A DNA stretch of 64,000 bases, from assembly GCA_002269645.1 (NCBI GenBank), contig NIVC01000292.1, forward strand, positions 682,001 to 746,000, written 5' to 3'. The stretch is from Macrostomum lignano (lineage: Eukaryota). Each line of letters opens with the position of its first letter. Position 1 is the first letter of the stretch. The notes under the pieces were generated by a model. That model worked only from the letters and a program-made list of their open reading frames with translations. It was not told the DNA's origin and searched no databases. This document shows, one piece after another, positions 3,755 through 26,394 of this stretch. Position numbers and translations under genes: made by a program.

Positions 3755-3896
3755 TGTGGCAGCCAGCCGCTTTAGTTTCTTATTCATGCATAAATTATTG
3801 TCTATGGACAAACTCAAATATACTTGTAAAGGGTGTGTGGCTGCGCCCACAGTCTCGCCAAGCGCGAATACTCCTAATACATTCAAACACGCAACA
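3755..3896 (+). repeat. 5' LTR (142 bp)
   Basis: Direct repeat of 8124-8265 with TG...CA ends, followed by the PBS. Confidence 0.95.
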
Positions 3897-3967
3897 TGGT
3901 GTCAGAGGTAAAAGACTCCAATTAGATAATTGCTTTGTGCGTCGTTTTTGGTGGCAACTACAGCGGC

Positions 3968-5128
3968 ATGTCCGACGCAGCTGGACTGCGACCTCCAGGG
4001 CCCATGGTATTCGATGAGGCCAAGTCAGAACGCTGGAGAAAATGGATCGGCGCATTCAATTTATACATGACCGCCACAAAGCGCGACAAGGAGGCTGACA
4101 GCATGAAGAATGCGATTCTGCTGACCGCCATCGGTGAAGAAGGCAGGGACATATTCGAGACATTCGAACTCTCTACTGACTCTGCTCACAAAGACATCAT
4201 CGACAAATTCGAGAAATTCTGCATTCCTCTGGACAGCGAAACATTTGATCGCTACAAGTTTAGAATGCGTAAGCAGGAGCAGTATGAAGATTTTGATCAC
4301 TTCATAGATGAGCTACGATTGTTAATAAAGCGATGCAGTTTTTCAAAGCCTAAAAATGGGCAATGCATTGACGATGCCATGCTTCGAGATCAGATAGTAT
4401 GTGGGGTTCATAATTCAGCACTCCGTGAACGGCTCCTTGAGGAAGAGAAGCTGACACTGGAAAAGGCTATTGTTCTGTGCCGTGCCACCGAAGCTTCAAA
4501 GATGCAAGCCAGGCAGATGACAGGTATAAAGAGTGAAAACAGAAACTCTGTCAGTCGAATTGTAAAAGACCCTGATCACAAGTTGCAGCAATCAACCAGA
4601 GCCAAGTCCAAGTCTATCACACGAAAGGCTCCTACAGGACAACAGGCATGCAGATACTGCGGCAAGAACCACAAATTTGGTCACACCAACTGCAGTGCCT
4701 ATGGCAAGACCTGCTTGAACTGTGGACAAAAGAACCATTTTAAGGCCATGTGCCGGAAAGAGAAAACAAAACAATCAAAACAGATTCGTACAGTTGAAGA
4801 TGAGCTTACTGACGTGACTGAAACATCGAATTCTTACCAAGCTGCTGCATGGGATGTAAGTAAATATTCTATGAATTATTATAATGGAAATGAAGTGAAA
4901 GCCGTTTCAAGAACAGTTGTGTCGCTAGACACTGAGTTTGGACACATCGTCAACTACAAAATTGATACCGGCGCTGATGTGAATATTATGTCCGAGAAAC
5001 GTTTAAGAACAATCACAGACAACCCATTAGAAAAAGACCACACCAGACTATCAGTGTATAACAATCAGACGCTTAATGTGAAGGCAAGATTAAATTGCGA
5101 CTCTCGCACAAAGACGCCGTGCATATAG
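3968..5128 (+). pseudogene. gag: Gypsy Gag (two CCHC knuckles) + aspartic protease
   Basis: CRYCGKNHKFGHTNC and CLNCGQKNHFKAMC knuckles, protease motif IDTGADV. A 1-nt deletion near 5082 shifts out of the protease frame (GKIKLRLSH..VEFTII..PLLA). Confidence 0.9.
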
Positions 5129-5236
5129 TAGAATTCACCATCATTGAGGACGACAATACACCTCTATTAGCGACCGACACAGCTGAGAAATTAGGCCTGA
5201 TTCAAATCCTCAACGTAACAAAGACTACAGATTTAA

Positions 5237-6595
5237 GTGCTGACGGAATCAAAGATCTTTAGGGAATACAGCGATGTGTTCGAAGGAATTGGATGTCTGC
5301 CTGGAGCGCATCACATTTCATTGAGAGAAGGTGCAATACCGAAAGTCCAAGGCCCAAGGAAAGTCCCATTTGCGGCTATGAAGGCTCTGCGTGAAGAGCT
5401 TGACCGTTTGCAGAGCCAAGGAATAATAACGAAATGCGACCAGCCGGCAGATTGGGTGTCCAATGTTGTTATCGTCTGGAAGAAGGATAACTGGATTAGA
5501 CTGTGCTTGGATCCAAAGAATCTAAATGATGATATTGTCAGAAATCGATACCCCATTCCAACTTATGACGAGATGATTAGCGAGATGACAGGAGCAAAAT
5601 ACTTCTCAACATTTGATGCTAAGTCTGGCTTCCATCAAGTTCAGTTGGATCAAGAAAGTTCACTTCTTACTGCATGTCACACTCCGTTTGGTGTTTACAA
5701 ACGGAATCGACTAGCTTTTGGTCTAAAGGATGCACCTGAAGCTTACCAAAGGCGCATCAAAGAAGAAGTGACAAGTCAAGTAGAAAAATCTGCTAACTAC
5801 ATCGATGACGTCATAGTATGGGGAAAGACTCGGGAAGAGCACGACCAAGCAGTTCGAAATCTTTTGGAGCAATGCAGGAAAAAGAACCTGACTCTGAACA
5901 GGCAAAAGACGAGCATTGGCAAAACCGAGCTTCGATTTCTTGGACACATACTAACTGACAAAGGTGTGAAAGTAGATCCACAAAAAGTAAACAGCATCAA
6001 AGAAATGCCGCACCCAAACAGTTTTGAACAGCGTGCTGAAAAGCAAGCGCAGCTCCAACGGTTTATTGGTAGTGCAAATTACTTGTCAAGATTCATAGCA
6101 AACTTTTCTGCACTGACAAGTCCTTTGAGGGAACTCATGAAGAAAGAATCCGAATGGGTGTGGACCAACGACCAAGAAAAGGCGTATCAAGGAATCAAGC
6201 AGTGCCTCTGCGAAGCACCTGTGCTTGCGCCATTTGACCCGAATAAAGACCTAATTTTATCTGTCGACGCCAGCAAAGATGGCTTGGGAGCAGCACTATT
6301 GCAGGAAGGACATGTCATTGAGTATGCATCATCAGCTCTAACATCCGCTCAAAAGAAATATGCCCAGATAGAGAAGGAAATGCTTGCGATAGTATTTGGC
6401 TGTCGAAGGTTCAGACAGTATCTCTGGGGACGTAGAGTCTCCGTCGAGTCTGACCACAAACCGCTGCAGTATATTATGAAGAAGCCAATGGATGAACTAT
6501 CGGCTAGAATTCAACGTCTGATACTCAAGATCCAAGAATTCGACTTAGACGTGCAATACAAACCGGAAGATATCTTTATTTGGCTGATACATTAA
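5237..6595 (+). pseudogene. pol: Gypsy reverse transcriptase + RNase H
   Basis: RLCLDPKNLN, FSTFDAKSGFHQ, YIDD and RNase H SVDASKDGLGA / YAQIEKEMLA / SDHKPL motifs. Frameshifts at about 5236 and 6565. Confidence 0.92.
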
Positions 6596-7867
6596 GCCGT
6601 GCTTTCTTGCAATCCGTGCATTCGGCGAGTGACATAGACTCCGAGCTTGAGAATCAAATCTTGGGTATCCAAAAGGTTTGTCTATCGGAAGACCTACTTA
6701 AGAAGATCCAGGAACACACATATGCAGATTCAACTTGCCATGCGATCAAGAATCGCATTCGCGAAGGTTGGCCGGAACTCAGAAACCAATTGCCAGAACA
6801 ACTAAAGCCTTTCTGGAATGTTCGTCACGATTTAGCCGAGCACGACAGATTAATTATGAAAACCAGCAAGATATTTATACCACTGACCATGCGCCACGAA
6901 TTCTTGAACATCATTCATGAAGGACATCAAGGCATTGAAAAAACACTGCTAAAAGCAAGAGGATCGGTATACTGGCCTCAGATGCGTCGGGACATCCAGA
7001 ACTACATAGCAGCATGCGATGCCTGCCAAAGCAGCCAATCCCGACCACAGAAAGAAACAATCATTCAAAGTCCGCATCCTGATTATCCATTTCAAGAGTG
7101 CGCGACTGACCTGTTCGATTTTAAAGGTCGAAAATTCATAGTTTTAGTGGACAGATACAGCCGATGGATCTGTGCAGATCCATTAAGATCAAATACAGCT
7201 GAGTTTGTTATCCTGCGATTAAAGAAATATTTCTCCACATTCGGAACACCTGAGAAGTTGCGATGTGACAACGGACCGCCATTCTCGTCCAACGCATTCC
7301 AATTATATGCTAAATCAAGCGGGATAGCGCTTGTAACATCATCACCAAGATATCCACAGTCCAATGGATTAGCGGAGCGAGCTGTGCAAACAGTGAAATG
7401 CTTCTTGAAAAAGAATGAAGACTTTGAAAAAGCAATGCTTCACTAATCACTACCGTAATACTCCGATTGAGCGTGGGTTACCGACCCCAGCAGAGCTACT
7501 GATGGGAAGGAAATTGAGGTACGAACTACCTGTACCAGTAATGGAATTGATACCAAAACGAACATGGACGAAGAATGATTTGGAAACACTGAACGCCATG
7601 CGAAGGAAGGACGCGATTCGCTACAACAGTACAGCTAGGGATTTGAAGCCACTGGAGACTGGAGAGCAAGTCTGGTTGTACGAGGACAAGAGACAGTGGA
7701 TTCCAGCAGAAATTCAATCGCGGGATCATATGGATCCAGAACGATCGTACCAAGTGCAAACTGCTGATGGTAAATGCTACAGAAGGAACCGACGATTTTT
7801 AGCACCCAGAGTTGCGAACTCCAGACTGTCTGCAATACCGAAACATCTAGCGCTACAGCGACAGTAG
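6580..7867 (+). pseudogene. Gypsy integrase (HHCC + DDE + GPY/F-like tail)
   Basis: HEGHQG..C..C zinc finger, TDLF, CDNGPPF, SNGLAERAV. A 7-nt insertion at about 7441-7447 creates a stop/frameshift; HYRNTP..TPAELLMGRKLR continues in another frame. Confidence 0.9.
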
Positions 7868-8123
7868 ATATCTCAGAGAGTCATCTGAAAGATTCAACTG
7901 CATCATCCGGAATTCAGCCAACTCATGAGCATCCAACAACAAGTAATCCTGCTGAAGATGCTAACCGACAAACGACCAATGCTGACACAAATGCGACATA
8001 TGTGACACGATCGGGTCGTACTGTCAAACAGACGAGATTCTATCAAGCTGTTTAATGATGAATTTTTTTGTTTATGAACAAACTATGCAATTAACGAACA
8101 ATGTTCTTTTGAAAAAAGGGGGA

Positions 8124-8265
8124 TGTGGCATTCAGCCGCTTTAGTTTCTTATTCATGCATAAATTATTGTCTATGGACAAACTCAAATATACTTGTAAAG
8201 GGTGTGTGGCTGCGCCCACAGTCTCGCCAAGCGCGAATACTCCTAATACATTCAAACACGCAACA
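8124..8265 (+). repeat. 3' LTR (142 bp)
   Basis: Preceded by the PPT; 140/142 identical to the 5' LTR. Confidence 0.95.
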
Positions 8266-10589
8266 AGCCCCAATCCTCTGAATAATTTCCCGAACCACTC
8301 AGGGAATCCACAAAGCAACTTCGACCATCGCCCGGCCTAAGAACTTGGTGAGACATTGCAGCCCAAAGACTAAACCCAGCCCAGATATTGTCTTTTCTCT
8401 TGAGGTCCCTTTGCACACCAGACGCGTAATTCGAATTGACTGAGTTCGTGGTGGTGTGAATGAATCATAATGTGAATGAGTTCTGTTCAATGAGTATTTT
8501 AGCATGCACAGCGGCAACGATATAGCTCGATGGTAAATTACTGAAAATGGGTGTCTCAAACGTGTAGGGGCAAGGGGTTCGCAGGGGAACCCGGGGCAAG
8601 ATCAGGCCAGAGTACCATTTGGCGAGACATTTGGAGAGGCATTGGCGCATGTCAGTTCAGGTCAAGAGCCACTCAAGCATATACACTTAGCAAAACGGCT
8701 TTCTACTTCCAGTTCAGTAGCAAAGAAGAATATAAGCTATTTATAAAAACAAGTCAGCTGAAATGACTTTGATAAGTTTCAAAGCCCAAGCTTGCATGCA
8801 TAAACAACTTGCTGATTGGTTCATCAATAATGTACATTAGCCCCACTAAAATTTTCATGGGGCAGCTTTAGGCTGGAATTGCGAGGGGCAATAAAAATCG
8901 GGGCGGGGCGGGGGTAGTGTGCAAGGCGCGGTTGGAGGGTTTAAGCTAGGGGGTAAAAGCCAATAAATGAGCATTGCCTTTAAAAATAAATTAAAATGCT
9001 TCAGTTTAACTTACTACTGAACTGAAAGTAGCTTGAACGCAAATGTACTGAGTGGCCATGTCAGATTTTATGAACATAAATTGACAATAATTATCCCTTT
9101 TTCTATACTTTCTCTATGTAATTTTGCGTTCGGTCGCTCCCAATCGGGCCGTTTTAGCTGTGCCTATTTTGTGCGTACGTATATTCATATAATAGTTCCA
9201 CGATCGATAATTTAGGCCAAGAGGTCCATTTTATTACCTTTAAATATAACCTGGTCTCTCTCTTCCTACTTTTTACGACCGTTTAAAACTTTCACTGCCC
9301 GCCTGTTGCTAAATATAGCTTCCTAAGTGTTAGTCATTCCGTCTTGGTTATTTGTCCCACTAGCAATTGGACAGGCCCATCTAGTTATTCTAGTATCTGT
9401 GGTTTAGATTAAGCTGATGTACGTTAGTTCAGGTTAAGCTGATGCACGTTCTTTCAGGTTAAAAGACCTTACGCTCAGCTCAGGAAGCGATAAGAAGACG
9501 ACGCACGAGGCTGCACCTGAGCCCCGAGCACAATGACAGTTATGATGGCGAAAGCGACTCAGAACCTGAGTTACATTATTTACGAATGCACATCGCACGT
9601 AATAAAACCGCTTTTTGAAATCGCGATTTTTAAAAAGTTTTACTTTACAAATTTTACTTACACTGAATCCAGAAATATGAGTTCCTGTGCACTGGAGGTG
9701 CAGTCAGTAGACTGAATTCTTGTTCGCAAGTAGTGGCTTAGCCTCAAGTTGCTTACTTATGATTAATAACAGCTACTCATTCTGCCCCTCTGCAATGCCC
9801 CTCTCAGCAAATAGCAGCACTCGGATTATCCAAAACCCCTTTCTAACCCGAACCCGTAGTCAGAGTGGCCACAGGACTGACTGCGCCTGCCCAGTAAAAC
9901 CACCTGCTTCCTAGACTTGAGCTCAAATGAACAATGGCCTTGCGAGCTGTTTCAACAGTCTTCCCAATTCTTTCTTTGGCGCGTGCAATACAAAAGGCAG
10001 AGAGCTCTGAAGATTTAGAAGTCTCTGTACAAAGGGCAAATGAGCAAAAATTTCAAACCCCAGCTTCTAACTAATTTTGGACTCACGAAATCCGCTAGTG
10101 GGTCTCATCTCTTCCAATTATTGAATCATAAATTGTCTCACCTGCTTTTCTCATCGGGGAAACTTTTTTACAATGCCTTGAAACTATTGAGCCTAAGATC
10201 GCACTGATACAGAGTATTTTAAGGCCATTGTTGCTAACACAGCCTATATGTGTAGAGATGAGCGCAATTACACCAGACACAATATTTGCATTAAAACCCC
10301 GAGGATGCGGGTGGCCTGCTCTGCAGGCCATAGCTCTTAGTCTATGGCTTGCGAATCATTTCGATGCTGTTTCGAAAAATAAGTCTACATAACCGTAGCT
10401 TGCGGCTACGGTAAATGACTATTTTTTATGCAGAAAAAATTTGTAGATCTCAGTCAACGTTTTTTTTTCTATCTGATGTAGTCTTTTTTAATAAGGAACA
10501 GTAAAAATCAATAAGAATAAATCGCTATAACGTATAAACAATGTTTAACAGCTAAAACAGCAACAATAAAATAACCTGTTTACATGTAT

Positions 10590-11622
10590 AACCATGCAGA
10601 TGGCATATTGGGCACAACTTCGGTTTCCCGCTCTAAATTATTTTCTGGCATTGGTTGCTAGAATAACTCGAGATGAAAGAAAAACTATATGCTGCGCTAT
10701 TGAAACGATGAAAAACGAAAAGGGGCCTCTTGAGCGAGATGCTCTGGGTCGATATATTTAATGAGCTGAGTGAAAGCGTACAATACACGTGAGCGTAATG
10801 TGGGGTGGGGCGATCAGTGAAGAATGAAAGTGGTGCGATCAATAATTAGGGACTGTACGTATGAGCAAAATAAATATGTTAGCCTAATTGAACATGTAGC
10901 TTTTGCAAACGAAAAGTTTAAGAAATACCACGAGACAGTGGCAGCTCCAGAACAGGCATTATTACTGTACTGTTTTAAAACCTGCGTTACTTATTTTTTC
11001 CGGCATTTCCAGATTAGGAATTCAGAAACCTGCTTCATTTCCCTGCTTTGGACTATTACCTTGTGTCACTCGTTGACTTTTTACCCCTGTGACCAGTTCG
11101 TTTCGCACGATTCGTTGAACAGGGTGAAGTTGAGCCACGCCTTGCGTGTCGAGAAAGTAAACTTTCTTTAGGCCGGAGCTCTTCCTGTCAACTATTTTCA
11201 ACGCTAGCACGTTTCCTTTGCGCATAAACGTAACCGGATCTAGCTTCGCAAAGACAATACAGTTTAATGCCATATCGCGCTTTCTTAAATGGAATATATT
11301 GACGAAATGTGACACGACCTCTGAACAGGACTAGCTCTTCGTCGACACTAATTTCTTTTTCTGGCATGCACACACTGCGACAAATCTCAGCAACACGCGT
11401 AATAAATTGTCTTGCCTTTGCTAGCGGGTCGTTTCCATCGAAGTTGTTGCAGTCATAGAAACGCAATTGGCTACTGATCTGTTGGTACCTGTCCCTTGTC
11501 AGACAAGCGAGTTGTTGGAAGAAAGGTGTTGCGTAGAAATCATCTCTGCTCCAATGGTTGGCAATCTCGGGCTTTTTAACTATTCCCGATATGTAAAGCG
11601 ACATGGCGACAAACTTTTTCAT
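10590..11622 (-). pseudogene. piggyBac (PGBD-like, DDE_Tnp_1_7) transposase remnant with internal deletion
   Basis: SVDEELVLFRGRVTFRQYIPFKKARYGIKLYCLC..SGYVY motif. An abrupt junction at about 11225 leads to a later segment (RKGNVLALKIVDRK..VYFL). A degenerate Cys-rich tail (CQK..GKPKLCPIC) lies near 10610-10670. Confidence 0.8.
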
Positions 11623-11774
11623 GGCCTAGTATGGGCGCGACCTGGGTTCGATTTCGCTAGTTGAGATGTGGGTGAGAGAGGGGGAGAGGCTAGGTGGGGG
11701 CAGGGCGTGAGGTATAGGGTGCCTGCGGGGTACGTATCGTTGACTACATATCGGTGCACACACATATCGGGAGG

Positions 11775-11847
11775 GGGGCCGTAGCCCAGCGGTAGCGCAG
11801 CTGCTCTGGTGTGCCAGCGACCCAGGCTCGATTCCAAGTGCAGTCAC
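11775..11847 (+). mobile_element. tRNA-derived SINE-like head / tRNA pseudogene
   Basis: A-box TAGCCCAGCGG and B-box GGCTCGATTCC at tRNA-like spacing, but the acceptor stem does not pair. A second, compressed A/B-box pair (TGGCCTAGTATGG / GGTTCGATTTC) is at about 11622-11655. Confidence 0.45.
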
Positions 11848-12129
11848 ATTAATTTGGGGTTGAATTGGAATCTCGGCTTGGCTCTGCTCGTGCAATTAAC
11901 GGCCTTGAGAGCCAACCCCCCAAGGCGTAGTGAAGTGTACATGCCTAACGATAATATAAAGTTAGGGCCGCTGTACACTCCTGTGTGAGTTTGTGCCTGC
12001 GTACGTATCCGCGCACTTGTATGTCTGCTCAGGGGAGTCGGCGGAATGGGCAGTAATGCCTCTCGCCGGTTGTGTGCCAATGTCGCTTAAAGTGCGCCAG
12101 GGTGCACACAACCCCCTGCCTCTAATAAA

Positions 12130-12360
12130 ATAATAAACACATATCGGGAGAGTGTACACCCGTATTGGGCGAGTGTACAAACATATTGGGAGAGTGTACC
12201 TTTGGCTCGGGTGAGTGGGGCGCCTGCAGCTCAGGAGGGTGTACATATCGGGGTACATATCAGGAGGGTGCCCCTGCGGCATGGGCGCCTGCGGCTCGGG
12301 CGGGTGTACACATCAGGAGGGTGCGCCTGCGGCATGGGCGCCTGGGTGGCGCTTGGCGCC
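12130..12360. repeat. Imperfect GC-rich repeats (acatatcgggag.., gggcgcctgcggc.., caggagggtg)
   Basis: Several re-used 15-30-bp blocks; origin unknown. Confidence 0.5.
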
Positions 12361-12589
12361 ACGCGCGCCGAGCGCCAGCCAATGGGTTGACATCCACCCC
12401 ACCTCCAAAACCGACGGATACGGGAGTCCTTAGTAGTAATACATACACTGATAATAATTAGTATATAAAAATGTAATAATCCGCCGTATCCTCATACAAA
12501 ATCATAAAACTCTATAGATGACTTCCACGAATCTTAGAAAATGAAAATTAGAAATACAAGAGCTCAAAAATAGGTTCTTTGGCTGGCAA

Positions 12590-13068
12590 ACCTCGCAAGC
12601 AAATTTCCTGCAAGCAAACTTCGGCAGGCAAAATTCCGCAAGCAAAGTTCGGCAAGCAAAGTTCGGCAAGCAAAGTTCCTGCAAGCAAAGTTCGGCAAGC
12701 AAAGTTCGGCAAGCAAAGTTCGGCAAGCAAAGTTCGGCAAGCAAAGTTCGGCAAGCAAAGTTCGGCAAGCAAAGTTCGGCAAGCAAAGTTCGGCAAGCAA
12801 AGTTCCTGCAAGCAAAGTTCGGCAAGCAAAGTTCGGCAAGCAAAGTTCGGCAAGCAAAGTTCGGCAAGCAAAGTTCGGCAAGCAAAGTTCGGCAAGCAAA
12901 GTTCGGCAAGCAAAGTTCGGCAAGCAAAGTTCGGCAAGCAAAGTTCCTGCAAGCAAAGTTCGGCAAGCAGACTTCGGCAAGCAAAATTCGGCAAGCAGAC
13001 TTCGGCAAGCAAAGTTCGGCAAGCAAATTTCCGCAAGCAAAAGTCCCGCAAGCAAACTTCTCGCAAGA
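12590..13068. repeat. 14-bp minisatellite (ttcggcaagcaaag), about 33 copies
   Basis: Direct tandem units; the array replaces the integrase C-terminus. Confidence 0.95.
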
Positions 13069-13079
13069 AAATTTCATAG

Positions 13080-13819
13080 ACCCGTTTAGATGCTTCTAAA
13101 GGAGTTATCAGAATCTCTGAATGGATTGTGTTATTGTATTTTTCAGCAATATTCGGTAATATGTGGAGCCACTGCTGGTTTTCTTGTAGATCAAATTCAA
13201 ACCAGAGTTTATTTGTGAGAGTGCGATTAAATCTCTCAATCATTGCATTCTTGGACTCGCCATAAATTGAGAACATCTTGTTTATATATTCACCATTTTC
13301 ATCCTTCTTTCTAACATTGTCTTTTGAAAACGAGTATAGCTTGCACATATGCTGGTTATAAAACTCCTTGCCTTCATCAACACAATGTCTCTCTGATCGT
13401 CTTCCTGATTCCTTAAATATTTTCTGGAAAGCTTCTGCAACTTCCGCTCCCGTCTTTGTTTTCAAAGGAACTGCCCAAGCGAAACGTGTGAAACCATCTA
13501 TAACAGTGAGAGCATATTTGTAACCTCTTTCAGGTGGTAGGATAATGATATCTGCATGCCAAATTGTGTCTTTTGTATAGTGAATCATTTTTCTAAACAG
13601 TTTTGCTTTTCTGTATTCCCTAAGTAATTTCACAGCATCTTCGTAGCTTAGACCATTGCCGTATATGGTTAGACAGTCTATGCAATTGTTGGGGTTGTGA
13701 GTATAAATTCCTAATCCAAACCGAACTTTAGCCTTAATAAGAAGCTTTACTAGATTTCGAATAAGTCTCTCTTTCACAGACAAGTCACTGGTTGGAATCG
13801 CATCTAAATCAGTTATCAT
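13080..13819 (-). pseudogene. Polinton-type DDE (rve) integrase fused to the C-terminal helices of a PLA2-like domain
   Basis: WHADII / YKYALTVIDGFTRFAWAVPLKTKTG / VDEGKEFYN / MIERFNRTL / YNNTIHS..TP retains the D-D-E triad. The N-terminus ..KHIADEKMITDLDAIP..KAKVRFGLG matches the end of Polinton PLA2-like proteins. Truncated 3' by the 14-bp array. Confidence 0.85.
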
Positions 13820-14929
13820 TTTTTCATCAGCAATGTGCTTCTTTGCTAGAGCTTCCTCTGGATTTGAAGATGTTTTTTCAGCAGTCTGTAATTGGATTGA
13901 GTCTCTTGTCTAGATTTGGACCTGTCAGTTGTTCCTCAATCTTTCGAAAGAGGCTGGACTTTATCTTAAGGCTTCATCAGGATTGACCAGATCCTTCAGC
14001 CCCACCTCCATAAAGTCTCTGAACCTTCTCCATATCCTTGTCAACTACGTTTTTCGGACGTACCTTAGCTACTCGAACAAAGTTCGGACTTAGGAGCTTG
14101 GCTGCGGATTTCCACCATGTCCTCAAGCTTGTTACCATTGGGAACAGGAATTACCTGAGTTGCTTCAGAAGATTTCTCAACTGAAGTGGTGCTTGAGGCT
14201 TTTGAAGGAGTTCCCGCAATTTGAAGGTGTCGCCATTCACTAAGCACTTGTTTAATGTTGGTTATAATGTTTTTGTATTGATCCCCATAAAAAAATTTCA
14301 ATGCAAATTCTTCTGTTTTAAGGGTGATTCCATTGTCTAGTAAAATATTCTTAGGTTCCTTTGTAGTTTTATTGATGCATACATAATACAACTGATAGGT
14401 GGGATAAGAATTTTTATAGTCTAATAGTTTCTAGTAGTAACTTTCACGACTTGAGGAATTGTCTGTGTTATCAGAAGATTTAAGCTCTAATGCAATCTTT
14501 CGCTCAACTTGAACTAGGTCTATCTTTTTTACCTTCTCGAGCCCAAAATAACTTTCTGCTAAAACTTCATATAGTCTGCCTAGTCTCATTTGAATAATTT
14601 TAATCTTGTGTGAAATTATTAGCTCTTCTTGAAATAAATCGCAAAGAATTTGGTCATCCCCCACCTTGTCGTCAATTGGTTTCAGGAGAATTTCTCCAAT
14701 TGTGTTCTCCATTCTCCATTTTACTATAGAAAATTTAACAAGTGCTTTATTCGATGACTAGCAAGGACATTGACTTCCTCACTCAGGCCACAACGTAACC
14801 TGCGAAAGAATACCCTGGAATATGAAATTCGGCAGGATATTTTCCAGTGGAGAAAATAGGTGGCAAATGAGTCATTGCGGTCTGAATATCTAAAGCACAA
14901 CCAAGAAATAGTGGTTTATTGAAGGCCAT
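13820..14929 (-). pseudogene. PLA2-like (parvoviral PLA2 / PLA2X-type) gene split by an 878-nt insert and lacking the catalytic HD segment
   Basis: 5' part GCALDIQ..EFHIPGYSFAG (14929-14800) and 3' part GPNLDKRLNP (from 13921) together give the PGY-x-F-x-GP..LDKRL signature. The region expected to hold H-D is deleted. Confidence 0.65.
14233..14712 (-). pseudogene. PD-(D/E)xK restriction-endonuclease-like ORF with one in-frame stop
   Basis: ORFs 14431..14712 and 14065..14391 are in the same frame, separated by a single TAG (14431-14433). Motif QMRLG....IDLV....ALELKSSDNTDNSSS, recognised by resemblance to giant-virus/Eco47II-like nucleases (not database-verified). Confidence 0.6.
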
Positions 14930-15526
14930 TTTGTAGCAGAAAAATTTTGTTAAAGATTTTACATTTACTACTTGCATAAGTAGAATGGTTTGGTGAAAAT
15001 GTCATTTATTTTGCCCACAGTCATTGCACGGCCTTCTATTAAATTCTGTTATGAAATTAGAGGCATGCTTTTATTTTCCATTTCTAAAACGAGGAAAAAG
15101 AAGAAATTTCTCGTCGCGAATTCTATCTAAAGAATGGTAAACATTAAAGAAATTATTCTAAAAAGAGATATACTTTCTATTTAGTAGGCGTTAAAGGAAA
15201 AAACACAACATAGAGAGTTTTACTCAAAAAAATTCCAACGCATTGGAAAAGTTTGACCTTCATATGTCATTGAAGATTAGCCCAAACTCCGACGTCGGCT
15301 TTTCATTTCTTGCTGAGGAGAAATGAAAGGTAGTCCCATTGTATTAGGTTAGGGAGTAGGAGGGTATGTGGATTTTTTTGAAAGAGAGTGCATGACTGGA
15401 TGTGGAAAGAGATTTTCAGTACAGTGGAACCCGCGCAGTGCAGCCAGAGGAATAGAATAGGTAAGTTCCCTTTTTCAGGACAATAGAGACTGCGTACATC
15501 GACAATGAATTGCCCAGTATTTGAGG

Positions 15527-15740
15527 CAGTTTTCCGACAGTTTTCCGACAGTTTTCCGACAGTTTTCCGACAGTTTTCCGACAGTTTTCCGACAGTTTTC
15601 CGACAGATTTCCGACAGATTTCCGACAGATTTCCGACAGTTTTCCGACAGATTTCCGACAGATTTCCGACAGATTTCCGACAGATTTCCGACAGATTTCC
15701 GACAGATTTCCGACAGTTTTCCGACAGATTTCCGACAGTT
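15527..15740. repeat. 11-bp minisatellite (ga/gt-tttccgaca), about 19 copies
   Basis: Tandem units in two variant blocks. Confidence 0.95.
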
Positions 15741-16518
15741 TCTGTTGAGCAAAAAATTCCGACAGTCTGTCAGATATTTGTCGCAAACAAAAACCCATTA
15801 TCTACTAATAGTAGTCCTCTCTTTTCAAGAACAATAGAGAATGTACACAAAGTACACATAGCAGTAATCCTCTTCCTTCTCTTCAAATTCACTGTTATTT
15901 TTGCAATTTTTAGAATGAGCTCTCAATAATTCTCTTCTTAACTCATAAATTTCTTTCTGTTTTGATTCCTCAATCTGTTTTGTTATTTTCAAAAACGTGT
16001 CCGACATTTTGAATGCGTGTGGTGCTATTTTTAAGTGATTTTTTGACATTTTCTCGATCCAAATTTTTCGATCTTCCTTTGCTTTCTCTGTTCCATTTCT
16101 TCTTTCTTCTTTTTCAATTCTTCTTCTTCATTATCGTCTCCAGTGAAGAGGTCTTCCAGTACCATTAATGATCATTCCAAGTCCCAACATGAATTGACTC
16201 TCTGGCACCAATATTCTTTTCGTTCGTCAGGAATCTCTCAAAAGTTCTTCGAAGAAATATTTTGCTTCAGTTTTATCTTTTGTCAACAGACCTTCCAACA
16301 GTCAATCCTGTTCTCATGGTTTCCCCAGCCATGCTCAGAGAGGATACAGCTTAAAGCAGAATGTTGGAGTCTGCGGCTCTTTAGTAGGTAGAGCTCAAGC
16401 AATACAGTAGACACTATAGAGAGAATGAAATTGTTGTCAATAGCAACTAGATTGGGTAAGAGGTTTTGAGTACTGTTGGATCCACGTATAGGCAAACGTA
16501 GTTCCTCCTTTCCGAGTA

Positions 16519-16843
16519 CAATAGAAGCTGCACATGGCAAGTTCCCCTTTTTGAGAACAATAGAAGCTGCACATGGCAAGTTCCCCTTTTTGAGAACAAT
16601 AGAAGCTGCACACGGCAAGTTCCCCTTTTTGAGAACAATAGAAGCTGCACATGGCAAGTTCCCCTTTTTGAGAACAATAGAAGCTGCACACGGCAAGTTC
16701 CCCTTTTTGAGAACAATAGAAGCTGCACACGGCAAGTTCCCCTTTTTGAGAACAATAGAAGCTGCACATGGCAAGTTCCCCTTTTTGAGAACAATAGAAG
16801 CTGCACACGGCAAGTTCCCCTTTTTGAGAACAATAGAAGCTGT
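16519..16843. repeat. 39-bp minisatellite, 8 full copies, flanked by 36-bp direct repeats
   Basis: Unit caatagaagctgcacatggcaagttcccctttttgagaa. Identical tgttggatccacgtataggcaaacgtagttcctcct at 16474-16509 and 16901-16936. Confidence 0.93.
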
Positions 16844-17384
16844 ACAGAGCAGTGTTGGGGATTGTAAGTTCTCCCTTCATCCAAAATTGACTATTACAGA
16901 TGTTGGATCCACGTATAGGCAAACGTAGTTCCTCCTGTAGAGTACAATAGACTCTTTGAGAGAATCTGTCACTAACTTGAAATGAGTGTTCCAAAATCCT
17001 GAGAAGTTTTGCTCAATACTGCACACTTAAAAATTAGTTTTTTTTTTAGGGTTAGGAATTTTCTTAAAAGAAGGGGGTTAAGAATAATTTATTGATTTGA
17101 AATTTTTTAAGTGAGTCAGAGTCAGGAGTCAGTGGTAGTTATCAAAGTCGCTAAGAAAAATAATTGATATTTTTAATTGGTTAAAAATAAGCCTTAGAGG
17201 GGGGATACTAAGGACATATTTTATAGTTATCTAAATGGTAGTGAATATTATATGGGGGATTTTTGGGCAGTGTCACTGACTCATGACTCACGACTCACCC
17301 TTTAAAAACATAAGTTTAAAAACTGTCTTTAGGGGGGTCTAGAACTTCTAAAGAGAAAAGTACATTTTTCTTAAATATGCTTTT

Positions 17385-17507
17385 AAGTAGTGGATAGAGA
17401 TATAGAATATGGACACCAAATGAACGAATGAACGAGAAAGTGAAATGAGTGAATGCCCCCGACGCAGGAGGGTGTGTGGCCATATTCTATATCTCTATCC
17501 ACTACTT
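17385..17507. mobile_element. 123-bp palindromic MITE-like element with 28-bp perfect TIRs
   Basis: AAGTAGTGGATAGAGATATAGAATATGG (17385-17412) is the exact reverse complement of 17480-17507. No TSD identified. Confidence 0.6.
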
Positions 17508-17816
17508 GTCACTGACTCATGCCAATCTGTCACTGACTCATGCCATTCTGTCACTAACTCATGCCAATCTGTCACTGACTCATGCCAATCTGTCACTGAC
17601 TCATGCCAATCTGTCACTGACTCATGCCAATCTGTCACTGACTCATGCCAATCTGTCACTGACTCATGCCAATCTGTCACTGACTCATGCCAATCTGTCA
17701 CTGACTCATGCCAATCTGTCACTGACTCATGCCAATCTGTCACTGACTCATGCCCATCTGTCACTGACTCATGCCCATCTATCGTTGACTCATGCCAGTC
17801 TGTCACTGCAGAAATT
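17507..17816. repeat. 21-bp minisatellite (ctgtcactgactcatgccaat), about 14 copies, starting at the kinase stop codon
   Basis: Tandem units; the first unit on the minus strand contains the kinase TGA. Confidence 0.93.
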
Positions 17817-18264
17817 TGTGCTCCAGCAGCTCCGCGGTGGCCGCTCGCCTCCTCGGCTCCCTCTGGATGCACCGTCCGTAGAAGTCCCTCAGCAGGGCGG
17901 AGGTCCCGGCCGGCAGCTGCGGCATGTCGTGTCTTTGAATCCTTAGTGGGATCTGCTGCCACATGAGCTGCCAGTTCGGAGGCTTCATCTCCAGCATCTC
18001 GAACACGGAGCAGCCGAAAGCCCACACGTCAGTCTTGGGTGAGTACACGATTCTTCCGTCCTCACTGAACAGCTCGGGAGCCATGAAGTAGGGGGTGCCG
18101 CAATCCCTCTTGGTGCTGCGCATCGTGGCGAAGACCTCCTTGGCGAGACCGAAGTCGATCAGCTTGATGAGGCCCTCGTTGGTGAGCATCAAGTTGGAGC
18201 ACTTGATGTCACGGTGCAGGGTGACGGGACTGCGGCTGTGCAGGAAGTTAAGCGCTGTGCAGAT
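17803..18264 (-). CDS. Ankyrin-kinase gene 2, exon 3: kinase C-lobe
   Basis: Acceptor ..aactcacag|ATC. Motifs [37 protein letters not shown]; stop TGA at 17803-17805. Phase 0 matches the upstream exon. Confidence 0.9.
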
Positions 18265-18304
18265 CTGTGAGTTGGGGAGCGATTGAGCAGGGGTGGTGTG
18301 GGAT

Positions 18305-18924
18305 CTGAGCTGCTTGGAGAAGTCCCTCACTGCTGCATGGGGTGGTGTAGGATCTGAGCTGCTTGGAGAAGTCCCTCACTGCTGCATGGGGTGGTGTAGG
18401 ATCTGAGCTGCTTGGAGAAGTCCCTCACTGCTGCATGGGGTGGTGTGGGATCTGAGCTGCTTGGAGAAGTCCCTCACTGCTGCATGGGGTGGTGTGGGAT
18501 CTGAGCTGCTTGGAGAAGTCCCTCACTGCTGCATGGGGTGGTGTGGGATCTGAGCTGCTTGGAGAAGTCCCTCACTGCTGCATGGGGTGGTGCGGGATCT
18601 GAGCTGCTTGGAGAAGTCCCTCACTGCTGCATGGGGTGGTGTGGGATCTGAGCTGCTTGGAGAAGTCCCTCACTGCTGCATGGGGTGGTGTGGGATCTGA
18701 GCTGCTTGGAGAAGTCCCTCACTGCTGCATGGGGTGGTGTGGGATCTGAGCTGCTTGGAGAAGTCCCTCACTGCTGCATGGGGTGGTGTGGGATCTGAGC
18801 TGCTTGGAGAAGTCCCACACTGCTGCATGGGGTGGTGTGGGATCTGAGCTGCTTGGAGAAGTCCCTCACTGCTGCATGGGCTGGTGTGGGATCTCACCTG
18901 CTTGGAGAAGTCCCTCACTGCTGC
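18305..18924. repeat. 49-bp minisatellite made of the exon 3' end plus the intron start; 12 copies plus the authentic junction
   Basis: Units start at 18305 + 49n up to the real donor at 18893-18897. Confidence 0.95.
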
Positions 18925-19285
18925 CTCATCGAAGGGCCGTCGCTGCAGCTGCATCAGCTCAAAGAGGCTGTGGCCGGAGATCAGCTCGGTGAAGATGCAC
19001 AGCTTGCCCTTCTTGCGCTCAGACTTGAGGAACTGCACGATGTTCGGGTGCCGGATGGCCTTCAGGACGGAGATCTCCGCGTTCTCCTTCTCGATGGCCT
19101 CGTCCATCAGCCTGGCGCTGCTGGCACCTTCCAGCCTGACGATCTTGACAGCCACAGTCTGGCGCTTATCGGTGAACGCCTTGTACACCTGGCCGAAGCC
19201 GCCTGCTCCGAGCAGCTGCTTGTTGCCGTCACCATCGAGAAGGAAGTCCCAGCTGGAGAAGGCGGGGTCCAGAGACGGCCTCGCA
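18898..19285 (-). CDS. Ankyrin-kinase gene 2, exon 2: STE (MAP3K/STE20-like) kinase N-lobe
   Basis: Acceptor ctctttcag|, LGAGGFGQVYK, VAVK, HPNIVQFL, donor CAG|GTGAGA. The 388-nt length keeps frame. Confidence 0.9.
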
Positions 19286-19440
19286 CTGAAAGAGGAGAGG
19301 GTTGGGAGACTGAAGCAATGCGGGATTGCTGCAGAAATGGGGAACTGAGCAGGCAGGGAGAGTCTGTCAGGTGATCATTGTGAGCCACTCTTAGCTGAAC
19401 CGAATGCAATTTCCCAAGTGAAAAGTGGAAGACGGCCTGC

Positions 19441-20363
19441 CTTGCTGACGGAGTCTCCTCGGACTGCAGCTGCAAGCCCGACATCGCCTGGCCCAGCCTC
19501 CGCTCTTCTCCATCAGGCTGCTGCCGCCGCTGCTCTGCGATCCACTCCCGAATCCGAGCTCCGTGCTGAGAGTTCCGCTCTGCGTAGTCGGCCACCGACT
19601 CGCCACCGGAATCGAGAAGGTCGAATGGGGCGAGGCCGAGAGAGTCCGCGATGAGGCGGAGCGAGTCCAGGTCCTGATGCTGAGCAGCCAGGTGAGCAGG
19701 TGTGGCTCCGTTTGAGTCTTTTTCCAACAGACAGGCCGCACCGAGCTCAGAGATGAGCCACTTGAGACAGGAATTGGTCTCATTCATAGCAGCAAAGTGA
19801 ATGGCAGTGCGTTGTACGCAGCCTGGCTGATGAAAGCAGTCGGATCCGAGGACTGATTTGAAGAACTGCATGGAATCGGCGCCCTGCTTCCAAGCAGCGA
19901 GATGGACGGGAGTGTTTCCTTGTTGGTCTCGAACGGAGAGACAGTCGGTTCCGCACTCGTTCACCAGCCACTTGAGACAGGAGTTGGTCGCTTCATTCTC
20001 AGCGGCAAAGTGAATAGCAGTGCGTTGGAGTCGGCCAGGCTGACGGAAGCAGTCGGATCCGAGGCTGCGGTGAATGAGCTCCATCCATGACACATCTCGA
20101 CACAAGGCAGCCAGGTGCACAGGAGTGTTGCCTCTTTCGTTGGTGCAGGTGAGGCAGTCGGGTCCCAGTTTCTTAATAAGAGCCTCGAAGCAGCGGAGAC
20201 CGTCGGATAGAAATGTCACGTGATGAGCAATGGACTGCTTTAACTGGTTGATGATGACTTCGAAGTTGGCGTCGAGCTGCCGGCAGAGGGGGAAGAGGCG
20301 GCCTGCGTCCTCGGCACGGAGGGCTGCAGCGACTTCTTTGCTCACTGAGGCTTGCCGGGCCAT
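19441..20363 (-). CDS. Ankyrin-kinase gene 2, exon 1: about 6 ankyrin repeats + linker (whole protein about 590 aa)
   Basis: ANK motifs homologous to 358..2342. A phase-2 donor is required; the best positional candidate is AAG|GCAGGC (GC-AG) at 19441/19440, with a weak GT alternative at 19465/19464. Confidence 0.8.
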
Positions 20364-20556
20364 GTCTGCAGAGTGGCGCGGACTGCGAGCGCGCTGGGCT
20401 GCTCTGTGCCGCTTTTATATGGACGGTGCGGAGAGGCGGGCTGAGCGGCATCCGAGCCAGACTACTGTGAGTAGGCAAAGCAGAGTAAACTGCAGATGCT
20501 GTGCTGAGTCTGTCAGTTCTGAGCTCGGAACTCAGCGAGACCGACTGCTGGCCGCA

Positions 20557-24762: not shown

Positions 24763-24870
24763 CGCAGATCTCGCAGGCAATCCAATGCTACTCAGTTATG
24801 CTACTCTACTGCCTACTTCCAGTAGTGCAAGTACAGCCAGTCAGACAAACACCGAGCAGCAGCCGCTCAC

Positions 24871-25688
24871 CTGCTGGTCGGTGAGGTGAGCAAACGGCTG
24901 CTCCCTGCAGAAGGTGAGCATCTCCCAGAGCGTCACGGCGAAGCTCCAGACGTCGCTGCGGCAGGAGAAGCGGCCGTGCAGGACGGCCTCCCAGGCCATC
25001 CAGCGGATCGGCAGCGAGGCGCCGCGACCTCCGTCCAGCCTGCAGTAGTCAGCAGAGTAGAGAGGCTGAGACATGCCAAAGTCGCAGATCTTCACCTGGT
25101 AGTCTTCACCCAGCAGGCAGTTGCGGCAGGCCAGGTCTCGGTGCACCAGCTGCAGGGACTCCAGGTACTTCATGCCGCTGGCAATCTGAGCTGCCAGGTA
25201 GATGAGGCAGCCGTGAGACAGCGGTGGCTCAGGTGATGCTGCTGCAGCGGCTGCCCTGGAGCGCAGGAACTGGTGCAGGTCCCCATGCTGCATGAACTCC
25301 ACCAGGATGCACTGCTGCGCCGCTGCGTCCTTGGTTGCCACGCCCAGCACCCTGACGATGTTCGGGTCCTGCAGGCGCGCCAACAGCCGCATCTCGCGCC
25401 GGAAGTCGCGGCGCGCCTGCGGCCCCGCGCCAGGCCGGAGAGTCTTGGCCGCCACCAGCAGCAGCCGGCCGCCAGGAGCGGCCCACTCGGCCAGGCGGAC
25501 CTCGCCGAACTGGCCGGCACCAAGGCGCTCTTTCAGCGCCACGGAGCCCGGCGCCACCTCGAGAGCGGCGACCGCGTCGGAGTCGGCGCCGCCGTCCAGA
25601 TCGTCAGGGACTCCAGCGACACTGCCGCAGTCCATGGCGGAGGCGAGGTCCGCGTCCGGACAGGCGTAGACTGTGTTGCCCGAGCAGC
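24871..25688 (-). CDS. DDR: DDR exon 7 (tyrosine kinase domain)
   Basis: Phase-1 acceptor gives IQ-G-CSGNTVYA (a DDR juxtamembrane signature). Motifs LGAGQFGEV, HRDLACRNCLL, DFGMS, LPIRWMAWE, SDVWSFAVTLWE; donor CAG|GTGAGC. Confidence 0.93.
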
Positions 25689-26394
25689 CTGCGGATTAGG
25701 GGAGTAGGGGAGTGGTGGATTTAGAGGGGATTATTGGAATTTGGAAGGCCAGCTGCGGCTCATGATGGGGGATGGCGCTCGCTCAGATTCCGGGAAACTC
25801 GGACACCAGCAGCTCAGCAATCAGGTGCTCCATCAGCTCAGGACTCGGAGCCTGCCTTCGCTGCTGCCGCTCGCACACGCCTCAGGAGTTCAGCGCAGAC
25901 TGACAGCTCGAAGAGGCTGAGCTGGCTGCATCATCTCAAGCTGGTGCCGGTGAGCAAAGGCATCGAGAGGCTGGCCAAGTGGCCTCATCAGCGGCTGCCC
26001 CATCAGTGACGGACCGGCCTGCGGTTACGCAATGCGCTCTGCTCCCCAGCAGAATTCCCTCCTCTCTGCTGTCTGCCTCACCGGCAGGAAGTGGCTGAGC
26101 TGCCTCATCTCTCTCCCAGCCTCTCAGCTGCTCAGTTGATCACTTTCCACCTGATGCGGCTGAGAGGCTGGGACAAAGAGCTGCTCGCGTGGCTGATAAG
26201 TGTTTGATGCTGGGGGCTTCATCAGTGGGGATCTGAGCAGGAATGCGGATTGAGGAGACTCAGGTGTCACCTGATGGCACTGGTAGAGCTCAGTGGGAAA
26301 TATGAGATGTTGAGGCATTTCGGTAATCCCCAAATCCTCATCACAGGTGAGTCAGGCCACCTGTTGATGTGCATGCCGTGAGGCTATGAACATG

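Follow-up and report, generated by a model that had tools for sequence, protein, structure and literature searches.

A candidate mobile group I intron carrying an Eco47II-like nuclease gene in a phospholipase-integrase gene of Polinton type

Introduction

On the minus strand of the window (the whole 64,000-nt stretch of Macrostomum lignano contig NIVC01000292.1 analysed here), a gene resembling phospholipase A2 (PLA2) is interrupted by DNA that carries a reading frame for a nuclease. What sort of insertion this is, where exactly it begins and ends, and what the nuclease might do for it are the questions raised by this locus. The initial annotation described an 878-nt insert (14799-13922) that splits the PLA2-like gene, and both the letters and the PLA2-like coding sequence on either side are as it stated, but the true ends of the insert differ. 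We conclude with good confidence that the insert is a mobile intron of group I, hosted by an element of the Polinton/adintovirus type, which is predicted to splice in frame and to employ its nuclease for homing into the PLA2 loop. The earlier view of a selfish nuclease cassette, which is predicted to remove itself, parasitises a Polinton-like element by way of its PLA2 gene and behaves like a homing intron, holds up, as uninterrupted versions of the gene exist; the spliceosomal intron or introner with a 5-bp target-site duplication (TSD), proposed at the same time, gives way to a group I ribozyme (Rfam family RF00028) with other ends.

The interrupted PLA2-integrase gene

The following features make up the host gene:

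14798..14929, minus: exon 1 of the PLA2-integrase gene, 44 codons (translation and BLASTP; P1 pairing)
13085..13925, minus: exon 2, the remainder of PLA2 fused to an rve integrase (tblastn to P0017; Pfam rve, E 6e-10)
13920..13924, minus: right CAGGT, inside exon 2 and not a TSD
12595..13075: 14-bp tandem array cutting the integrase short (TRF, 32.9 copies)

Exon 1 ends at the glycine of the PLA2 calcium-binding loop, and its last base, U14798, marks the 5' splice site. BLASTP of this exon against 153 proteins gave 43 alignments with uninterrupted PLA2 relatives at E<=1; when the exon-1 peptide was compared with longer proteins, two candidates were found, neither of which was scored. Exon 2 is 80% identical to protein P0017 over 257 amino acids (tblastn), with a gap near the N-terminus. 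The damage to this exon comprises the gap of approximately 12 residues, a frame change near position 13890 and the loss of the segment with the catalytic His-Asp. In the relatives, the Pfam domains Phospholip_A2_4 and rve are found in one protein, and P0022, P0055 and P0083 are uninterrupted fusions of this kind. Among 150 PLA2 relatives, 81 are uninterrupted, with a glycine directly before the PG[TN] motif; seven have another residue at this position and 62 show no match to the motif. In the Atlas, P0017 lies nearest to a Preplasmiviricota-rich cluster of 184 members (score 0.96), and PLA2X and PLA2-rve fusions of adintoviruses (Preplasmiviricota) represent the same type of host gene as the one in the window. 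The PLA2-rve gene would accordingly belong to a Polinton-type element, a membership that rests on this one gene.

As a separate observation, exon 2 of the window opens with T-G-P (13925-13917, minus), where P0017 and P0018 read P-G-T; this creates the only GGNCC within 12430-17400.

Identity and ends of the insert

The insert is assigned as follows:

14797-13926, minus: group I intron, IC1-like, 872 nt (Rfam RF00028 and end analysis)

RF00028 was the sole Rfam family above its gathering threshold in the 64 kb, with a score of 88.1 bits (gathering threshold 50; E 1.1e-22) and an alignment that covers the whole model (positions 1-253) at 14299-13935. That the insert is a group I intron is, in our assessment, close to certain. 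Its ends very probably fall after 14798 and after 13926. They were set by several constraints jointly. P1-like pairing alone is not rare, being available at 26 of 656 U positions. Three G residues downstream of P9 are candidates for the last nucleotide of the intron, and G13926 alone offers a full P9.0, a frame that meets at a codon boundary and a spacing of four residues between the Gly and the Leu of the loop. The four-residue pattern is seen in 106 of the 150 PLA2 relatives, while the other 44 fit no pattern and none has a spacing of two. Furthermore, P0017 and P0018, which come from two sources, begin with translated P7-3'/P9 sequence that runs straight into the exon-2 motif of PLA2, in a phase identical to that of the window, so that their insertion site is the same as that of the window; the integrases are approximately 74-80% identical. 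No other PLA2 peptides with an intron-derived end were found among the 150 representatives. An alternative in-frame pair of ends, after 14797 and after 13922, is less likely; with it, the spacing is three residues and half of P9.0 remains.

Two predicted proteins, P0023 and P0040, open with M-P-G-T exactly at the exon-2 boundary and may come from additional intron-bearing copies.

The signals from which the earlier model had been built are present in the sequence: GT at 14799-14798, AG at 13923-13922, the two minus-strand CAGGT copies at 14802-14798 and 13924-13920, and CTGAC before the AG at 13928-13924. The best-supported ends, however, lie 2 nt (left) and 4 nt (right) further in. The CAGGT pair is no TSD, since both copies are coding sequence: one closes exon 1 on the left, within Ala-Gly codons, and the other, on the right, occupies nucleotides 2-6 of exon 2, within Thr-Gly codons. 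On the minus strand a third copy, at 14157, is the P5c stem, making three copies in 4901 nt. Removal from GT to AG keeps the frame, as stated, but six exon bases are lost with it, and the resulting two-residue loop spacing is the one that occurs in 0 of 150 relatives. The two loop residues that had been noted as missing are restored when the group I ends are used, four residues then separating the loop Gly from the Leu.

Spliceosomal introns have consensus sequences at the donor site, a pyrimidine tract and a branch point, and by comparison the signals here are weak: the donor reads GT-TACG, there is no pyrimidine tract (pyrimidines make up 47% of the 30 nt preceding the AG) and the branch-like CTGAC abuts the AG. 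No inverted repeats were found at the termini of the insert, and neither an empty site nor a further copy of the insert was detected inside the window (self-BLAST of 8001-18000; Rfam over 64 kb). Together with the unseen loop spacing and the constraints on group I ends, these weak signals led us to reject the GT..AG ends and the TSD model. A spliceosomal or introner-type insertion of 878 nt, flanked by a 5-bp TSD, could appeal to the dinucleotides, CTGAC, the paired CAGGT and the preserved frame but would leave the ribozyme unaccounted for, and we regard it as very improbable. Still less credible is a microhomology-mediated rearrangement that set an ordinary neighbouring nuclease gene between two pieces of PLA2. 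This copy does bear other lesions, and a nuclease does neighbour PLA2 in protein P0122, but a rearrangement would hardly have produced the identical intron end at the identical codon in two diverged relatives (P0017 and P0018), nor boundaries on which P1, P9.0 and the terminal G fall exactly. With a group I ribozyme recognised and its own ends placed, the caveat about such a rearrangement becomes superfluous.

Ribozyme architecture

The elements of the putative ribozyme were assigned as follows:

14784..14802, minus: P1 with the internal guide sequence (8/8 pairs; U14798.G14788 wobble; MFE fold)
14793-14790 with 13925-13922, minus: P10, 4 bp (4/4 pairs)
14760..14783, minus: P2 hairpin (8/8 pairs)
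14758-14737 with 14252-14232, minus: P2.1 long-range stem (16/16 pairs; duplex -20.5 kcal/mol)
14023..14218, minus: P4-P6 scaffold with P5abc (MFE fold identical to centroid fold; z -1.9; 8 of 200 shuffles equally stable)
14133-14129, 14176-14173 and 14094-14089/14034-14030, minus: P5abc motifs, namely A-rich bulge, GAAA of L5b and tetraloop receptor
13957..14229, minus: catalytic P3/P7/P8 domain (Rfam alignment, helix counts)
14229-14223:14009-14003, minus: P3 (7/7 pairs)
14017-14013:13961-13957, minus: P7 (5/5 pairs plus one; bulged A14018; G-site pair G14017-C13957)
14002-13969, minus: P8
13926..13955, minus: P9.0, P9 hairpin with GAAA loop, terminal G13926 (candidate-G comparison; phase of P0017/P0018)

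The ribozyme in this copy looks intact. All 99 of 99 pairs in its 18 helices are standard; as the helices were assigned by hand, this count means that no helix is broken and is not an independent test. P1 consists of five pairs with the exon plus three others, and the U.G pair marks the 5' splice site. P10 has little stability (-1.5 kcal/mol). As an observation apart, the segment 13932-13928, just before the terminal G, binds the same P1 loop (14794-14790) better (-4.9 kcal/mol), a pairing that may help to select the 3' site or to form circles. The P2.1 stem was also detected blind, as inverted repeat I2, and its 484-nt loop contains the start and the catalytic domain of the nuclease gene. An AAUAAA hexamer is found in the 5' arm of P2.1 (14751-14746, minus), 50 nt into the intron. 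The folding energy of the core is modestly unusual (z -2.4).

The P5abc features, together with P2 and P2.1, point to subgroup IC1; the covariance model compared was the general one of Rfam. The names of the P4-P6 motifs (A-rich bulge, GAAA L5b, 11-nt receptor) and the list of IC1 features follow the Tetrahymena intron. P5 extensions are described as ruling out subgroup IC3 in the available text of a recent survey (PMC11835236).

The nuclease gene and its homologs

The intron contains one protein-coding gene:

14712-14065, minus: Eco47II/EcoO109I-like PD-(D/E)xK nuclease gene, 215 codons (Pfam, homologs, structure model)

The reading frame has the orientation that was previously noted for it, but is not continuous, being broken by a TAG stop at codon 94 (14433-14431); homologs such as P0001 and P0002 are open at this position. 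It starts in L2.1 and runs through the ribozyme core, with codons ~161-215 overlapping P3-P6. Near the nuclease start, 7 nt are duplicated (14719-14706, minus), and the first ATG there is out of frame, in A-rich surroundings similar to those of the PLA2 start.

The window protein matches the Pfam family PF09553 (Eco47II) with 31 bits (cut-off 25.9; E 2.4e-7). We identified 16 homologs among 172 candidates, at 42-61% identity, and all 14 aligned homologs match PF09553 at E<=1; three homologs that were scored singly fell below the cut-off. The catalytic E-x-K is invariant in the aligned homologs. A structural model of the intact homolog P0002 (pLDDT 74 overall, about 33 in the tail) finds EcoO109I as its best match (Z 9.6, rmsd 4.1, 165 aligned residues, 13% identity). 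Foldseek searches with the nuclease model returned weak matches to restriction enzymes in PDB (EcoO109I, E 1e-3) and in BFVD; that homing nucleases are missing from these lists carries no evidential weight. A sequence profile search of PDB gave no significant match. Neither the window protein nor the 14 homologs matched PF11645 (I-Ssp6803I) at E<=1, and the His-Cys box is absent, Pfam giving Eco47II alone and the fold being of the restriction type. No match was obtained for P0002 in phages or for the intron core in phages and plasmids. In bacterial and archaeal genomes there were 16 pattern matches, from which one locus turned out to be a chance match of 16 residues without an intron.

The C-terminal tails of the homologs bear on the association with the intron. 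In 11 of 16 homologs the tail matches the ribozyme core, in some of them in another frame; three homologs are truncated and two stop at the end of the domain. Tail-less forms include P0012, P0015 and P0122. Between P0001 and P0002, the tail is better conserved (78-80%) than the enzyme (55-57%) even though it is predicted to be disordered, which argues for a constraint at the RNA level. In P0005-P0010 the tails are less conserved in frame (34-45%) than the domains. In a codon test of P7, the pair of residues from P0002 and P0017 kept both variable base pairs in 8 of 8 codon choices, while mixed window/homolog combinations paired in 0 of 12 and 0 of 24. These results would imply a compensatory double change in P7, provided that P0002 and P0017 come from one contig; the case is a single protein pair with codons deduced from protein, and the shared contig is deduced from a common source and from the longest contig having the same length (4853) for both. 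In the nuclease tree 2 of 13 branches are supported, so the tree does not give the order of free-standing and intron-borne forms.

Proposed splicing and homing

From the class of the intron, we infer guanosine-dependent self-splicing that would restore a PLA2-integrase message. The transcript would fold as an IC1-type ribozyme; an exogenous G would attack after U14798, exon 1 would then attack after G13926, and the exons would be joined in frame. Since the exons would be joined by self-splicing, expression of the integrase from this start would depend on it.

The frame that runs from L2.1 into the core would encode a restriction-enzyme-like homing endonuclease. Should it meet an intron-less relative within one cell, this enzyme would cut at or near the conserved Gly-Pro codons in the PLA2 loop, and the intron would be copied into the cut allele by repair. 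Such cut-and-repair homing into intron-less alleles is proposed by analogy, and it is likely that the nuclease is the homing enzyme of the intron. Alternatively, the group I intron may be real and the nuclease a passenger or a protein with another job, such as cutting rival viral DNA, with no homing at the PLA2 site. In favour of this, the nearest families are type II restriction enzymes, which recognise short sites; look-alikes in the Atlas fall into clusters from phages and bacteria; and tail-less forms exist. Yet 11 of 16 homologs precede a group I core, the frame starts in a peripheral loop, which the available text of PMC3679873 describes as the usual place of homing genes, and the site of the enzyme family coincides with the codons at the insertion point. 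We therefore consider a nuclease unrelated to homing unlikely.

As to the target, GGNCC is the site linked with homologs of Eco47II (PMC10305163), and EcoO109I reads RG^GNCCY (PMC3089450), according to the portions available of these two sources. A Gly-Pro codon pair always spells GGNCC, and the intron sits between both codons; 93 of 106 loops have Gly-Pro and 13 of 106 (12%) lack the Pro. By the specificity of the family, the target core may be a GGNCC that straddles the insertion point and is split by the intron, a proposal that we rate just short of even. The identity of 13% to EcoO109I means that the specificity may differ. A specificity of 5-7 bp would be toxic to the host genome, so that either the real site must exceed this length or expression must be under tight limits. 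A GGNCC at 13922-13918, in exon 2 of the window itself, would be a target for a bare 5-bp cutter, a further point for a nuclease with another job, and depletion of GGNCC in the element is not significant (one seen, 2.5 expected).

In P0122, the C-terminal half of the nuclease family (60 bits) reads straight in frame into a PLA2 that is uninterrupted and has no loop Pro. This arrangement is as expected for a candidate free-standing homing nuclease beside an immune allele, as judged from one record. In the window, the nuclease and the host gene are broken and the ribozyme helices intact; the window holds a dead, truncated copy.

Genomic setting

No Pfam match to pPolB, capsid, ATPase, protease or other Polinton genes was detected in six frames in 14928-16480 and 8400-11200, and no terminal inverted repeats bounding the element were found. 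The element is therefore a remnant. The block has a GC content of 37%, as against 50-66% further right, and three tandem arrays bound or interrupt the AT-rich remnant: 12595-13075 (14 bp), 15527-15742 (11 bp) and 16500-16846 (39 bp).

Other elements were noted nearby. A gypsy-like LTR retrotransposon (by eye, from ORFs) occupies 3755-8265, with a 142-nt repeat of 98.6% identity at both ends; a MITE-like element of 329 nt with 21-nt inverted ends (90%) lies at 8703-9031; and a fragment of a piggyBac-like transposase is found at 11188-11625, minus (Pfam DDE_Tnp_1_7, E 9e-31). A 123-nt element at 17385-17507 has 32-nt terminal inverted repeats (97%) and ends in AGTAGT, adjoining a 21-bp array. 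A gene with ankyrin-like repeats and a kinase (by eye) extends over 17800-20414, minus, broken up by tandem arrays.

A DDR-type receptor tyrosine kinase domain at 24844-25695, minus (E 9e-73), 10 kb from the block, marks the scaffold as animal, and the element appears to lie in an animal chromosome. The intron and nuclease could be as described and the block nevertheless a mis-joined or contaminating Polinton-like virus (PLV) of a protist or fungus. Its low GC, its tandem-array borders and the lack of polymerase, capsid and terminal repeats nearby would be in keeping with this; in addition, the available text of 10.64898/2026.06.19.733378 has phospholipases in protist Gosseviruses as well, and that of PMC12220804 has group I introns in protist PLVs. 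We consider this origin improbable in view of the AT-rich transposon remnants around the block (gypsy and piggyBac-like), of its decay, which resembles that of its neighbours (stop, frame change, truncation) and is unlike a live contaminant, of the animal DDR-type kinase, and of the association of PLA2-bearing adintoviruses with animals in the text available from PMC8502044.

Comparison with known systems

The nuclear IC1 introns Tth.L1925 of Tetrahymena and Ppo.L1925 of Physarum (I-PpoI) have in common with the window intron the P1-P10 layout, P2 and P2.1, the G-site in P7, P5abc with the A-rich bulge, the GAAA loop and receptor, and a nuclease in a peripheral loop. As summarised in the accessible part of PMC3679873, nuclear group I introns occur solely in the rRNA genes of microbial eukaryotes, and every nuclease that they carry is of the His-Cys box type. 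In contrast to those rDNA introns, the window intron lies in a protein-coding gene of Polinton type in an animal scaffold, its nuclease is restriction-enzyme-like, its ORF reads through the core, and it has just a short P9.

The introns of protist PLVs are likewise RF00028 members inside Polinton-like elements integrated in eukaryotic genomes (PMC12220804). The available text of that paper gives them as known from Paulinella, Desmodesmus and Rhodomonas only, and describes those of Rhodomonas as 309-376 bp long and located in a small gene that precedes the one for the capsid, with no nuclease annotated. The intron of the window differs from these in its 872 nt, its location in PLA2-integrase and its nuclease gene. 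Group I introns of Chlorella viruses are the subject of a 1994 paper (Yamada).

With regard to the nuclease, I-Ssp6803I (PF11645) and I-Bth0305I are further restriction-fold enzymes that serve group I introns, according to the excerpted text of PMC3424549, but they are prokaryotic or phage proteins of other families, while the match of the window is to Eco47II. Eco47II (PF09553) and EcoO109I (PDB 1wtd), with sites GGNCC and RGGNCCY, have sequence family and fold in common with the window nuclease. Unlike these, it comes from an intron within a eukaryotic element, and no methyltransferase partner was seen.

In the phage psbA model of collaborative homing, as given in the available text of PMC11296320, a free-standing nuclease and an intron share a conserved target, an arrangement proposed as the precursor of intron-encoded nucleases. 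P0122 would fit the free-standing state of this model, differing in that it is one protein record.

The available text of the adintovirus paper (PMC8502044) and of a coral polintovirus paper contains no mention of a group I intron. More generally, the accessible parts of the literature consulted, which includes PMC10748475, PMC11131425, PMC11071296 and 10.64898/2026.10.13.758929, report neither a group I intron from an animal Polinton nor an intron-borne nuclease resembling Eco47II; such cases may exist in supplements and in the intron database. A 2025 survey of 42,459 introns (PMC11835236) has, in the portion available, no animal cases beyond those of placozoans, corals and sponges, most of which are mitochondrial.

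Implications

The locus thus probably presents a known kind of element, a group I intron together with its probable homing enzyme, in an unexpected place and with a new enzyme family. In its working mode it would resemble a mobile group I intron of rDNA or phages, and each of the structural tests places it among group I introns. Group I introns are hardly known in an animal setting, and the nuclease family has no link to introns in the literature compared. Viruses would offer a concrete route for group I introns into animal nuclei. Since homing needs two alleles per cell, Polintons would have to meet and recombine as co-infecting viruses.

A broader reading, which we put forward tentatively and at somewhat less than even confidence, is that animal Polinton viruses host a Tetrahymena-like ribozyme family of their own, that a new class of homing enzymes derived from GGNCC cutters targets the Gly-Pro codons of phospholipases, that its free-standing and embedded forms coexist, and that viruses deposit introns in nuclear protein-coding genes of animals. 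The target of the nuclease and the origin of mobile introns by collaborative homing become directly testable in this system, which would also provide a natural ribozyme selected to splice out of viral mRNA in animal cells. If this is true, the coexistence of P0122-like and intron-embedded forms would be a snapshot of the birth of a mobile intron.
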